A DNA stretch of 64,000 bases, taken from the NCBI GenBank assembly GCA_028281825.1, contig JANQJC010000078.1, forward strand, positions 1,602-65,601, written 5' to 3'. Numbering within the stretch: position 1 is the first letter of the stretch; each line of letters begins with the position of its first letter. Shown here in pieces: positions 22,544 through 24,705 of this stretch. The DNA comes from Flavobacteriales bacterium. Its GTDB lineage: Bacteria > Bacteroidota > Bacteroidia > JANQJC01. The notes beneath the pieces were generated by a model that saw only the letters and a list, made by a program, of their open reading frames with translations, searched no databases and was not told the DNA's origin. The position numbers and the translations under genes are program-made.

Positions 22544-22690
22544 ATGAAACCATCCAAAGAAGCTGAAAGGATAGTTAAAGTAGCGAATGAGAAATTAGCG
22601 AGTATTAGAGAAAGTAGAGAGAATAATAATTCTGATAACTCTAATAAGTCGAGGGCTTCTTATACGACGGCTATTCGTGGAAGCTTCTAG
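22544..22690 (+). CDS. Small 48-aa protein, candidate antitoxin; start refined to ATG 22544
   Basis: Charged helical ORF downstream of a TATTTTTG promoter motif; overlaps the next gene by 14 nt. Confidence 0.5.
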   Translation: MKPSKEAERIVKVANEKLASIRESRENNNSDNSNKSRASYTTAIRGSF

Positions 22691-23306
22691 TGCTCCCACC
22701 TTATTTATTGTTGCAGGCCCAAACGGTGCAGGAAAAACTTCCCTAAGCAACGATATATTAAAAAAACACAAAGTTGAAGCTTTTGATTGGGATTTTGAAT
22801 ATGACCAATTTTGGGCCGAATTTAACTATGATTCTGACAGGACTATCAAGGAGAGTGCTAGGGAAAGGGCTACAGAGAAGTTTATTTCATTATATCACGC
22901 AGCTTTAAAGGAAAAAAGAAATTTTGCCTTTGAAGCAAACTTTCATTTAAAAGAGCATGTTGATTGGGCACAGAAGGCTAAACAAGCTGGTCATCACATT
23001 GTGCTCATATTCATGTACATGAAAAGTGTGGAGCTATGCATTGAAAGGGTAGTCGAAAGAGTAAAGTATGGAGGTCATCATGTAGAGGAGTTAGACATCA
23101 GAAAAAGGTATTCGAAAGGGCTTCAACATCTAAATGAATACTTCTCGATTTTTGATAATGTAATCATTTTTGATGCGTCATTAACATGGGAGATTGCCAT
23201 CATTGCGGAATTTAACAAGGGAAAACCAAATTATAAATCAAATAAAAGACTGAAAGAGAATGGAGGATTGCTTGAACTCCCAAGTCTTAGGTTGACTATG
23301 AGTTAA
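22677..23306 (+). CDS. Zeta-toxin family / P-loop kinase (predicted ATPase)
   Basis: IVAGPNGAGKTS Walker A, FAFE, and RVVERVKYGGHHV...IRKRY motifs. Confidence 0.85.
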   Translation: MEASSAPTLFIVAGPNGAGKTSLSNDILKKHKVEAFDWDFEYDQFWAEFNYDSDRTIKESARERATEKFISLYHAALKEKRNFAFEANFHLKEHVDWAQKAKQAGHHIVLIFMYMKSVELCIERVVERVKYGGHHVEELDIRKRYSKGLQHLNEYFSIFDNVIIFDASLTWEIAIIAEFNKGKPNYKSNKRLKENGGLLELPSLRLTMS

Positions 23307-23308
23307 TT

Positions 23309-23770
23309 TTACTCCAAAGTGATAGGCCTTTTAATACTTTCCTCTAAAGAGATAATGGTTTCTGTGCTATGCACACCATCTATATCCTGGATGTCTTCAT
23401 TTAGTACATCGCGGAGATGCTGGGTATTGCGGCAAACTATCTTTAAGAAGATGCTGTATTTACCAGTAGTGTAATAGGCCTCCACCACTTCGGGGATGTA
23501 TTCCAGTTTTTTGATAACGTCATTATACACGGAGCCTTTTTCCAAGAAAACACCAATAAAAGCGGAGACATCCATACCCAACTTATGGGCATTTACTGTC
23601 AGCGTGGAGCCTTCCACAATGCCGCTTTCTTTCAATTTATTCATCCTCACATGGATGGTTCCAGGAGAAACAACCACTTTTTTGGCCACTTCAGTGTATG
23701 GAATCATGGCGTTTTCCATTAAAATGGATAAAATCTCCCTATCTACCTTATCAATCTGATAATTTTCCAT
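23309..23770 (-). CDS. Lrp/AsnC family transcriptional regulator; start refined to ATG 23770
   Basis: IDKVDREIL...PYTEVAKKVVVSPGTIHVRMNKL HTH; TTGKYSIF..IVCRN RAM domain; close to the AsnC pattern. Confidence 0.93.
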   Translation of the reverse strand: MENYQIDKVDREILSILMENAMIPYTEVAKKVVVSPGTIHVRMNKLKESGIVEGSTLTVNAHKLGMDVSAFIGVFLEKGSVYNDVIKKLEYIPEVVEAYYTTGKYSIFLKIVCRNTQHLRDVLNEDIQDIDGVHSTETIISLEESIKRPITLE

Positions 23771-23857
23771 GTGTTTTATTGAATAAAATTGAATTATATA
23801 CAAATAAAGGAATTAATATTATGATAATAATAAAAATTATCTGTAAATATTGAATTA

Positions 23858-23889
23858 TTTGTAAAGAAAGGTGTATATCCTTACATTTG
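23858..23889 (+). promoter_or_regulatory. Consensus Bacteroidota sigma-A promoter driving the ncRNA unit
   Basis: TTTG (23858-23861), 20-nt spacer, TACATTTG (23882-23889). Confidence 0.85.
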
Positions 23890-23922
23890 TATCACGTTCT
23901 TTTTAAATAAAGTATTGGTTAT

Positions 23923-23987
23923 GCCCGACCTGGGATGGTTTGCATTAAATGGGGTACATTTTGCAAGCTATTTCCAGCGTCAGGTGC
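23923..23987 (+). ncRNA. Rod-like hairpin RNA upstream of the tRNA-like element
   Basis: Near-continuous pairing: GAC/GTC, CTGGGATGGTTTGCA/TGCAAGCTATTTCCAG (G-U pairs, one bulge) and AAATG/CATTT closing a GGGTA loop. Confidence 0.55.
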
Positions 23988-24022
23988 AAAAAATGAGGGA
24001 CAATTAGCAAAAATTGGAATAC

Positions 24023-24154
24023 TGTGGGGTGATGAAACCGGTCTGAATGACCATGGCAGACATGCCGCCCTGTCCCGGTGGTGGAGAGTACGGGATAAAG
24101 TGCGAGACAACTGCACCCAACCGCTCCGTGAAGGTTCGAATCCTTCCCCTACAG
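24023..24154 (+). tRNA. Atypical tRNA-Asp(GUC)-like RNA, 132 nt
   Basis: Acceptor TGTGGGG/CCCTACA with G73; D-stem ATG/CAT with GG in the loop; anticodon stem CCGCC/GGTGG with loop CTGTCCC (GTC at 24072-24074); T-arm GAAGG-TTCGAAT-CCTTC; 48-nt variable region; no encoded CCA. Confidence 0.8.
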
Positions 24155-24158
24155 CTAG

Positions 24159-24193
24159 AAGCCCCCTTACCGAATTGGTGAGGGGGCTTTTTT
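24159..24193 (+). terminator. Intrinsic terminator of the ncRNA unit
   Basis: AAGCCCCCTTACC-GAATT-GGTGAGGGGGCTT stem followed by a T-run. Confidence 0.88.
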
Positions 24194-24210
24194 ATTACAT
24201 TTACTCCATT

Positions 24211-24705
24211 ATGTTGATATTTCTCGTTACCTACATACAGGTTAATATAATACTGGGAATATTTCTTGGGATATACTACTGGGTAAAGGGCGATGGCCCT
24301 ACAGATTGGGCTAGCAGAATTTTATTGGTTCTTTTTCCCGTTTATGGATGGGGTAATTGGGTGTACAAGCGGGAAACCAAACTTGGAGGAATTCAATCCA
24401 ACAAACTGAAGGATGCTAAAATCATGATTAGGTTTGGTGTAGTGAATGGTTTTGCAATATTCTTTAGCCTACCTGCATTGATGAGAGCAATGGCCCTTGG
24501 GGGAATAGAAGACCATGCAGACAATTCAGGAGAATGGCTATTTAATGCAGGGTTTAATTTAGGTGGCATGCTTGTTAGCGGTTTTACAGGGTTACTATTG
24601 GCGGGTTTTTTATACACTGTCTTTTGCTGGGCACCTATTATTATTGGGCTGATAAGACAATCATCGGTTTATAAAAACTCGAACAGAGATAAGGCTTCTA
24701 GTTAG
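24211..24705 (+). CDS. Hypothetical membrane protein; start refined to ATG 24211
   Basis: Hydrophobic segments begin at 24211. The track's 23935 start runs through the RNA gene and its terminator. Confidence 0.65.
   Translation: MLIFLVTYIQVNIILGIFLGIYYWVKGDGPTDWASRILLVLFPVYGWGNWVYKRETKLGGIQSNKLKDAKIMIRFGVVNGFAIFFSLPALMRAMALGGIEDHADNSGEWLFNAGFNLGGMLVSGFTGLLLAGFLYTVFCWAPIIIGLIRQSSVYKNSNRDKASS

Follow-up and report, generated by a model that had tools for sequence, protein, structure and literature searches.

In the indirect, tRNA-dependent route to asparagine, a non-discriminating aspartyl-tRNA synthetase (ND-AspRS) works together with the amidotransferase GatCAB. Amidotransferases recognise their substrates, Asp-tRNA-Asn and Glu-tRNA-Gln, through the U1-A72 base pair (PMC4206432, PMC9976931), and about 68 bacterial genera, several Bacteroidetes included, keep GatCAB despite having both AsnRS and GlnRS (PMC4206432). 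In E. coli K-12 the regulatory gene asnC is transcribed divergently from asnA, which encodes asparagine synthetase A, with 151 bp between the two. Here we describe a family of tRNA-like RNAs of Bacteroidota that stand beside an asnC gene, starting from a copy at positions 24023 to 24155 of a 64,000-nt stretch (the window) of contig JANQJC010000078.1 of a Flavobacteriales bacterium (assembly GCA_028281825.1). An original prediction, made from the sequence of this window, had described the element as a tRNA-Asp(GUC)-like RNA with unusual insertions, able to bind or be charged by AspRS and poorly suited to decoding. Our best explanation, which we put forward tentatively, is a non-decoding tRNA mimic that is recognised by AspRS, belongs to the asparagine regulon and possibly serves GatCAB as a carrier for the conversion of Asp to Asn.

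With tRNA-Asn and tRNA-Asp of the indirect pathway the family has G73 and G34-U35 in common; its C36 and C38 match tRNA-Asp, and its U1-A72 matches tRNA-Asn and tRNA-Gln. It likewise ends, as the local tRNA genes do, in C74 without an encoded CCA, and it occurs in clades reported to carry gatCAB. It differs in this hybrid identity, in a class-II long variable arm (V-arm), a pyrimidine at position 37, a variable U33 and a length of 96-210 nt, as well as in adjoining asnC and in falling below the threshold of tRNA finders and Rfam; its use of AspRS and GatCAB is suggested by sequence. The allo-tRNAs (Mukai et al. 2017, PMC5389517) also combine a long V-arm, unusual anticodons (frequently GUC), G73 and polycistronic arrays. 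They are, however, of the 8/4 or 9/3 acceptor/T-stem type and decode in E. coli, whereas the family is 7/5, its T-stem directly abutting the acceptor (8/5 at most, if a pair -1/73 is formed), has no purine at position 37, shows expansions of D-loop and V-arm, is confined to Bacteroidota and is linked to asnC.

Closest in their possible way of working are tRNAs employed off the ribosome, such as the Staphylococcus cell-wall tRNA-Gly and the Bacillus cereus tRNA-Other (PMC3399842, cited in PMC8007984). Such tRNAs keep synthetase recognition and depart from the features needed in efficient translation, as the family appears to do; they are, however, normal-sized class-I molecules detected by tRNA finders, concern another amino acid, have no dedicated transcription-factor partner and bear no sequence relation to the family. 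The tRNA-like domain of tmRNA, YrlA/Y RNA, mascRNA and the viral tRNA-like structures resemble the family in acceptor/T-arm mimicry and in probable processing by tRNA enzymes, but they lack complete D and anticodon arms or are embedded, whereas the family keeps the whole cloverleaf. We therefore rejected tmRNA, permuted tmRNA and YrlA on architecture: unlike tmRNA, the RNA has a complete anticodon arm, and its pair 3-70 is U-A rather than G3.U70. Compared with tRNA-Sec (8/5, a 6-bp D-stem and UCA), the D-stem has 3 bp and the anticodon loop reads NNGUCNC.

The window copy consists of the following parts, all on the forward strand.

24023..24155: tRNA-like RNA, class-II cloverleaf, positions 1-73 plus C74 (covariance model R1, 109.4 bits, E=1.6e-28)
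24023-24029 with 24147-24153: acceptor, 7 bp, TGTGGGG with CCCTACA; pairs 3-70, 4-69, 5-68, 6-67 and 7-66 covary
24032..24063: D-arm, 3-bp stem ATG (24032-24034) with CAT (24061-24063); the loop has G18 G19 (24055-24056)
24040..24052: hairpin inserted in the D-loop, GGTC-TGAAT-GACC, alpha region, 5' of G18
24065..24081: anticodon-like arm, stem CCGCC (24065-24069) with GGTGG (24077-24081), loop CTGTCCC (24070-24076; G34 U35 C36 C37 C38)
24082..24129: long variable arm, 48 nt; Va GGAG/CTCC (24083-24086 with 24124-24127), bulge AGTA, Vb CGG/CCG (24091-24093 with 24121-24123)
24130..24146: T-arm, GAAGG-TTCGAAT-CCTTC
24154..24155: G73 discriminator and C74; CCA not encoded

This copy is 132 nt long (positions 1-73). 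The acceptor, D-stem, D-loop hairpin, GG, GTC anticodon and T-loop of the original prediction are all present at these positions, and position 37 is indeed C instead of a purine, in keeping with a pyrimidine across the family. Its three V-arm helices were also recovered; the arm, which it had called branched, is instead a single irregular hairpin in which an internal loop, GATAAA/CCAA, separates Vb from an apical hairpin at 24100-24116 that contains GTGC/GCAC. The same text had extended the acceptor by one pair. Such an eighth pair, -1/73, is possible, G73 being invariant and position -1 being C or U in 106 of 122 copies and A in 16. Folded alone, the domain keeps its acceptor and T arms in the minimum free energy (MFE) structure with z=-1.78, which is not significant, and the case thus rests on comparative data.

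Two sequence patterns were used to find relatives. Species-representative genomes were scanned with a D-arm pattern, GGTGATGAAAY...TGGCAGNCATGCC, which matched at least 119 stretches, and metagenomes with an independent pattern from the 3' half, which matched at least 120; each pattern constrains its own half of the molecule only, so that the two sets complement each other. In all, more than 240 distinct copies were fetched. Covariance model R1, built from 13 short members with the cloverleaf first proposed, recovers 125 and 118 copies, with 83-128 bits for full-length matches. In alignment A2, 98.8% of cells pair and 20 of the 27 pairs are double-changed; in alignment A4 the figures are 98.4% and 21 of 27. 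None of 500 shuffles reaches these values, and controls with slid partners leave 56-62% of cells paired. All six helices of the class-II cloverleaf covary in both alignments, the V-arm stems, whose covariation the original prediction had proposed to check, among them. We are practically certain on these comparative grounds that the structured RNA family is real.

Since the D-stem was fixed by the first search pattern, its covariation was read from the 3'-anchored set, where pair 10-25 is AU 64, GC 18 and UA 12 times and pair 11-24 is UA 88 and CG 6 times. Pair 30-40 occurs as U.G, U-A, C-G, G-C and A-U, and pair 50-64 as GC, GU, AU, UA and CG next to an invariant G53-C61 and TTCGA. Strong covariation is also seen in the V-arm stems Va and Vb (among others GC 58 with AU 46; CG 66, UA 19, AU 6). 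Rival pairings taken from MFE and RNAalifold folds, namely a GGCA/UGCC hairpin and G9A10U11 with G34U35C36, left 22-32% of cells unpaired in the same alignment without covariation and were rejected; judged by eye, the GUCUC loop showed no covariation with either AGAC of the D-loop or the V-arm. The fold has the 7-bp acceptor, D-arm, 5-bp anticodon stem with 7-nt loop and 5-bp T-arm of a tRNA, and the nucleotides of the tertiary contacts (U8, A14, G18, G19, T54, Psi55, C56 and A58) are present, with TG at positions 8-9 in 95 of 96 copies and AAA at 13-15, GG and TTCGA near-invariant. A 3-bp D-stem is typical of bacterial class-II tRNAs. The alignments thus describe a true class-II-shaped tRNA mimic whose V-arm emerges between positions 44 and 47-48.

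Existing tools do not see it. ARAGORN called no tRNA or tmRNA in the whole window and made no call at any family copy in 70 loci, and Rfam 15 at gathering thresholds gave nothing for the RNA in the window and 10 loci, so that these two of the three programs that the original prediction had proposed as checks place the window RNA in no known family. In E-value mode, Rfam returned for three regions only terminator-like noise, to which the weak matches at the window's terminator belong, and one sub-threshold tRNA match, at locus L064. The only genuine tRNA in the loci that R1 matched was a tRNA-Asp, at 34.7 bits. We found no description of such an RNA in Rfam or in the full-text literature searched, although literature outside that search may hold one. 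The missing calls and the poor MFE z-score are what one would expect of a chance cloverleaf or of a decaying pseudo-tRNA, the latter one of the outcomes that the original prediction had named as its own refutation. More than 240 distinct copies in several orders, strictly conserved and covarying, make this hardly conceivable, and the truly degenerate copies at L045 and L110 look quite different; the element is instead a strongly conserved tRNA mimic.

Comparison of the copies indicates that U1-A72, G2-C71, G73, C74, U35, C36 and C38 are under strict purifying selection, G34 nearly so, and that U33 and position 37, like the D-loop and the V-arm, can vary or expand freely. U1-A72 and G2-C71 are each found in 115 of 117 aligned copies, the fetch pattern having set no constraint on positions 1-5 or on the entire 3' strand; a real tRNA-Asp and degenerate copies account for the exceptions. 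G73 (123/123) and C74 (122/122) are without exception. In the 3'-anchored set U35 and C36 are invariant (95/95 each), C38 is present in 94 of 95 copies and G34 in 88 of 95 (119/123 in the other set). Position 32 is a pyrimidine. U33 is found in 89/95 and 106/123 copies of the two sets, and is thus replaced in 6-14%, and position 37 (U84/C7/G3/A1 in the 3'-anchored set, C in the window) lacks the purine of decoding tRNAs. The bacterial aspartate identity set comprises G73, G10, G34, U35, C36 and C38, with G2-C71 as a minor element (PMC9976931). Five of these, G73, G34, U35, C36 and C38, are retained in the window copy, as first proposed, and prove invariant or nearly so in more than 200 copies. 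From these nucleotides we lean towards the view that AspRS recognises the RNA.

A genuine decoding or recoding tRNA under AsnC control, either a class-II Asp isoacceptor or a Ser-charged, allo-tRNA-like GUC species, would account for the full set of tertiary interactions, for U33 in about 86-94% of copies and for the anticodon, GUC being predominant among allo-tRNAs (PMC5389517). Bacterial serine identity, which rests on G73, C72, G2-C71, R4-Y69, C11-G24, a large variable region and G30-C40 (PMC9976931), is partly matched by the long V-arm, G73 and G2-C71. Its elements C72, C11-G24 and G30-C40 are nevertheless absent, the family having A72, U11-A24 (C11-G24 in 6 rows) and U30.G40. A pyrimidine occupies position 37 in about 96-99% of copies, U33 has become C, G or A in several lineages, V-arms reach about 125 nt, D-loops carry hairpins, one paralogue has no anticodon loop at all, and the acceptor/T combination is 7/5 and not 8/4. 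A canonical tRNA-Asp (G1-C72, loop CUGUCAC) moreover co-exists with the family in Dyadobacter. We regard a decoding role as decidedly improbable.

The 3' end was compared with real tRNA genes (Ala, Asp, Arg and Cys) of related genomes:

L034 232-306 (reverse strand), L063 62-136, L036 6655-6729 and L057 4311-4382: real tRNA genes

All four have C74 and do not encode CCA. The C74 common to them and the family may reflect a shared requirement of 3' processing. Since the RNA ends as local tRNA genes do, the lack of an encoded CCA does not speak against charging, and the RNA would be matured by the tRNA machinery, that is by RNase P, 3' trimming and CCA addition.

The partner of the RNA is a regulatory gene on the opposite strand:

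23309..23803, reverse strand: asnC, asparagine-type Lrp/AsnC transcription factor, divergent from the RNA; ATG 23770 gives 153 aa

Its product has the Pfam domains AsnC_trans_reg and HTH_AsnC, scores 196 bits with NCBIfam NF008384 ('transcriptional regulator AsnC') against 57 for Lrp, and has as its closest solved structure E. coli AsnC (PDB 2CG4, E=6e-42, full length, about 50% identity). By these matches it is a true AsnC orthologue. As in E. coli, the regulator is divergent from its neighbour over a short gap, the RNA starting 110-250 bp from asnC in Bacteroidota; the neighbour in E. coli is asparagine synthetase A and here an RNA gene, for which control by AsnC and asparagine is presumed. 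With an orthologous regulator and the same divergent layout, the RNA holds the place of E. coli asnA.

The arrangement is conserved. Contigs were fetched through ever more distant orthologues of the regulator (88% to 60% identity), and on these the RNA keeps its divergent place directly upstream of asnC. The gene on its other side changes (A2M, a HisKA protein, UvrC, a metallo-beta-lactamase-fold protein) and is often convergent. Among the matches listed, 87 genome loci, and 62 of the 84 metagenome loci with room for it, have asnC upstream in divergent orientation, and no other neighbour family is kept across lineages. Because the downstream gene changes and asnC stays, the RNA is no cis-regulatory leader of the former; a leader or riboswitch of the membrane-protein gene downstream in the window was rejected on these grounds and because a terminator intervenes. 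The proximity to asnC would also suit a DNA-level element that merely resembles a tRNA, either an array of AsnC operators or an att site, tRNA-like sequences being common as att sites. Compensatory changes in six helices are, however, a signature of selection at the RNA level, the element has its own promoter and terminator, and no integrase is among the conserved neighbours, so that this alternative is extremely unlikely. The conserved divergent partner, absent from the original prediction, makes asparagine metabolism a likelier setting for the RNA than aspartate sensing, and we consider a function linked to asparagine and AsnC probable.

The family has the U1-A72 first pair through which GatCAB selects its substrates, and its distribution was compared with that of the enzyme. 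According to Table S1 of PMC4206432, gatCAB occurs together with asnS and glnS in Chitinophaga, Niastella, Dyadobacter, Emticicia, Spirosoma, Runella, Leadbetterella, Marivirga, Haliscomenobacter, Pedobacter and Solitalea, and without glnS in Cytophaga, Cyclobacteriaceae, Flexibacter, Fluviicola and Owenweeksia; it is absent from Bacteroidales, Flavobacteriaceae, Sphingobacterium sp. 21 and Saprospira. Among the matches listed, the RNA is found only in groups reported to bear gatCAB at the level of genus or family, Saprospira grandis being the one surveyed member of these groups without the enzyme. None of the at least 119 genome matches listed comes from Bacteroidales, Flavobacteriaceae or Sphingobacterium, no direct test of Flavobacteriaceae or Bacteroidales having been made. 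Daejeonella-like contigs carry two or three tandem copies upstream of asnC, at 94-98 bits. Daejeonella is assumed here to be related to Pedobacter, a gatCAB-positive genus. Sphingobacterium and Olivibacter share asnC and the promoter with these contigs but have no tRNA-like domain; with filters off, the best score is about 5 bits. The pattern within Sphingobacteriales agrees with a GatCAB model, on genus-level proxies and few independent events.

A regulatory tRNA mimic with no carrier role for GatCAB would draw on much of the same evidence. Acting as a decoy or sensor, it would bind AspRS or another tRNA-binding protein and tune aspartate or asparagine metabolism, in one variant with the ratio of charged to uncharged RNA as its readout. 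The conserved identity nucleotides and non-decoding features fit it equally, linkage to AsnC implies amino-acid-responsive expression, tandem arrays suit titration, and tRNA-like regulators of synthetases have precedents (reviewed in PMC9976931). It leaves unexplained the invariant U1-A72, by which the family departs from tRNA-Asp, the invariant C74 and, among the matches listed, the restriction to clades reported to carry gatCAB. We consider it unlikely.

In the mechanism that we prefer, that of a non-decoding mimic within the asparagine regulon, AspRS would recognise and probably aspartylate the RNA, which would be kept off the ribosome, and its expression would respond to asparagine through AsnC, as does that of asnA in E. 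coli. In the most specific and least certain step, GatCAB, reading U1-A72, would amidate the Asp carried by the RNA. The RNA would thus be a dedicated scaffold for tRNA-dependent asparagine synthesis that avoids the risk of Asn at Asp codons: a hybrid tRNA joining the anticodon-loop identity of tRNA-Asp, for a discriminating AspRS, to the U1-A72/G73 end of tRNA-Asn and tRNA-Gln, for GatCAB. Its pyrimidine 37, variable U33 and bulky expansions of D-loop and V-arm would exclude Asn borne on a GUC anticodon from translation. Such a carrier model would account for the hybrid identity, for the non-decoding features, because an RNA with a GUC anticodon and Asn attached has to stay off the ribosome, and for the retention of GatCAB in Chitinophagales, Cytophagales and relatives that have AsnRS and GlnRS. 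Tandem arrays of up to five copies fit a stoichiometric, tRNA-like role. The carrier step itself is doubtful.

Several observations weigh against this reading. The expectation of an AspRS-recognised mimic that decodes poorly stood as regards the conserved identity nucleotides, the variable U33 and pyrimidine 37; it did not as regards G10 and the first pair. Position 10 is A in about 65% of the family and G10-C25 is present in about 19%, the window copy having A10-U25 and no G10; in place of the G1-C72 of true tRNA-Asp, a pair that contributes to placing the acceptor end in E. coli AspRS, the family has the invariant U1-A72. In about 5-7% of copies G34 has given way to U, C or A, and the paralogue at L204 has no anticodon loop. 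There is a partial fit to SerRS (G73, G2-C71, a large V-arm and mostly R4-Y69). About a quarter of the loci with room have no nearby asnC. The correlation with GatCAB comes from few independent clades, genus-level proxies and the matches listed. About 3 nt (CAG) separate G19 from position 22, as in tRNA-Asp, and an extra base after G19 in the D-loop hinders GatCAB. Most genera that bear the RNA also have asnB and a tRNA-Asn with U1-A72, so that a dedicated carrier is not obviously needed, and the carrier model offers no step by which Asn would be released.

If the preferred reading of a non-decoding, asparagine-linked mimic is true, an RNA stands where E. coli has an enzyme gene, and AsnC would here be one of the rare transcription factors in amino-acid metabolism that have an RNA, and not a biosynthetic enzyme gene, as their conserved divergent target. 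An abundant, often multi-copy tRNA-shaped RNA would be present in soil and aquatic Bacteroidota, cultured Chitinophaga, Dyadobacter, Emticicia, Niabella, Fulvivirga and Persicobacter among them. The carrier step would offer a testable answer to the open question of why GatCAB is kept despite AsnRS and GlnRS (PMC4206432). Even without that step, the family would be a natural case of selection splitting synthetase identity from decoding, the principle that engineered orthogonal tRNAs follow.

The gap between the divergent asnC and a small membrane-protein gene measures 407 nt and holds, besides the tRNA-like domain, these elements:

23858..23889, forward strand: promoter of Bacteroidetes type, -33 TTTG (23858-23861), -7 TACATTTG (23882-23889), 20-nt spacer; read from sequence
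23896..24001, forward strand: clade-specific structured 5' leader with GTTCTT (23896-23901), the invariant AAGTATTGGTTAYGCC and a long hairpin at about 23919-23991; from alignment and folds
24160..24194, forward strand: intrinsic terminator, AGCCCCCTTACC-GAATT-GGTGAGGGGGCT followed by TTTTTT; read from sequence

The putative -33 and -7 boxes were called with the Bacteroidetes promoter consensus. The TTACATTTGT of the promoter is kept in L002-L007, L128, L130 and L254. In L002 the terminator shows compensatory changes (A-U to G.U; G.U to U-A), and GCTTTTT and CTTTTTT are the commonest 7-mers in the 60 nt 3' of the RNA across the family. Read in this way, the RNA is a real gene with its own promoter and terminator. 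The nearest relative is about 93% conserved from promoter to terminator, the leader at 23896-24001 included, with a flanking protein just 72% identical, which points to a conserved transcript. In the window's clade this primary transcript would be of about 300 nt and comprise 5' leader, variable linker, tRNA-like domain and terminator. Most other lineages have no structured leader; theirs is of about 15 nt with AGTTCTT.

No word is more enriched in the short 5' leaders than AGTTCTT (65/247 distinct copies), which stands just 3' of the -7 box and may belong to the transcription start region, to an AsnC operator or to a leader signal for RNase P. Position -2 is A in 115 of 122 copies. A second word, AUUGGUUA, lies in the invariant part of the leader here (window 23911-23925, AAGTATTGGTTATGCC) and recurs in the 3' trailer of Daejeonella-like copies (AGGTTTATAATTGGTTAG plus terminator). 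In Sphingobacterium and Olivibacter, which have no tRNA-like domain, the same trailer is kept as a short stand-alone small RNA (sRNA) adjoining asnC. Outside the window these occurrences are at L254 (about 830-860), L128 (about 2310-2335) and L256 (about 1300-1320), all on the reverse strand. In transcripts divergent from asnC, AUUGGUUA may act as an sRNA seed and so form a second functional module.

These flanking parts bear on a further alternative, in which the tRNA-like domain is a processing or stability module whose main task is to bring in RNase P, RNase Z or the CCA enzyme, so that adjoining sRNAs are freed or stabilised, much as mascRNA does for MALAT1 or the tRNA-linked spacers in E. 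coli. The leader of the window copy is as conserved as the tRNA-like part, AUUGGUUA recurs in leader and trailers and even without a tRNA-like domain, and the trailers of Cytophagales and Chitinophagaceae have conserved motifs of their own. Most members, however, have a leader of only about 15 nt and a trailer that passes directly into the terminator, and a mere handle would need no invariant UC-C in the anticodon loop, no V-arm core and no U1-A72; we judge the alternative improbable.

Two protein-coding readings of the locus, a leader open reading frame (ORF) of 28-38 aa and a 256-aa ORF on the forward strand (23935-24705, called protein P0001), were rejected: the substitutions, every one in the small ORF included, are non-synonymous, and the stop is unconserved. 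The 256-aa ORF spans the RNA gene and its terminator, and its homologue, P0002 (161 aa), begins at the equivalent of ATG 24211, the true start of the membrane-protein gene. The long call is an annotation artefact, made because the RNA gene is unannotated; a covariance model in Rfam-style annotation would avoid spurious ORFs of this kind.

Nearly all named sources among the matches listed are Bacteroidota. They include Chitinophagaceae (Chitinophaga, Niabella, Terrimonas, Ferruginibacter, Sediminibacterium and others), Saprospiraceae (Neolewinella, Portibacter) and Cytophagales (seven Dyadobacter, Emticicia, Fulvivirga, Marinoscillum, Persicobacter, Cyclobacteriaceae, Bernardetiaceae and Roseivirgaceae); Flavobacteriales are represented by one metagenome-assembled genome, a second (L007) having been reached through asnC. 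On a contig binned as Solibacteraceae (Acidobacteriota), L080 3337-3378 holds just the first 42 nt or so of the RNA, followed by unrelated GC-rich sequence. This is probably a chimeric assembly or a truncated fragment, and therefore no evidence for the family outside Bacteroidota.

The V-arm core is conserved: a 4-bp Va, a 3-4-nt bulge, a 3-bp Vb and GAUAA(A)...CUAA, into which variable hairpins are inserted, the apical part being freely replaced among relatives. The particular 48-nt arm and D-loop hairpin of the window are absent or different elsewhere. That D-loop hairpin recurs in L002 and L003, L004 and L005 carry a different one, and L007 and most members have none; independent GNRA-capped hairpins occupy the same site in the unrelated lineages of L030, L114, L089 and L173. 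The comparison shows that individual lineages have expanded the molecule at fixed sites, which gave rise to the D-loop hairpin and the long V-arm. The smallest member, L064, has only 96 nt, with a minimal V-arm GAGG-AUC-CGG-GAUAA-CCG-CCUC, and is matched end to end by the Rfam tRNA model at 25.2 bits against a threshold of 29. It goes beyond what the original prediction had described, as do the 5' leader, the invariant U1-A72 and C74 and the asnC partner.

In 154 of 229 distinct members (67%; for example L009 6537-6709) the V-arm holds an insert of 40-100 nt (...GCAUAGAGCCG[hairpin]CGACCAGGGUCGACCACUGAAC...) with a 9-nt loop, GGUYGACCA, on a covarying 3-bp stem (CAG/CUG, CGG/CCG, UGG/CCA). This module is absent from the window copy and has no Rfam match. 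Two or three copies per locus occur in L013, L017, L033, L044, L046, L069, L078, L094, L107 and L254, among others, and Persicobacter diffluens (L059 6436-7247, reverse strand) has five tandem copies with a period of 172 nt, a TTACATTTA promoter-like box before each and a single terminator after the last. Some relatives, all on the reverse strand, are altered: a mini version adjoining asnC at L130 2303-2385 has only a 6-bp acceptor and the T-arm left, L110 5822-5924 has acceptor and T-arm around an unrelated AT-rich interior, the 5' half of L045 2920-3098 is disrupted, and the paralogue at L204 5373-5536 has an extended hairpin in place of the anticodon loop. The acceptor/T-arm half seems to be the last part lost in degenerate relatives.

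The neighbourhood in the window is that of an ordinary Bacteroidota chromosome, with sorting domains of the type IX secretion system (T9SS), DUF5686, alpha-2-macroglobulin, LepA, HflX and RmlA; a plasmid or phage origin was rejected on this housekeeping context and for want of blastn matches. A scan of 30 larger ORFs of the 64 kb, which left out 10 ORFs of at least 110 aa, found no aspS, gatCAB, asnA or asnB. Beside the locus, between an alcohol-dehydrogenase-like gene and asnC, lies an ORF for a zeta-toxin/AAA_33-like kinase (22677-23306, forward strand). L001 has a 211-aa gene call at its position, and in L002 the dehydrogenase gene abuts asnC, so that the zeta-toxin-like ORF looks like a small indel polymorphism.

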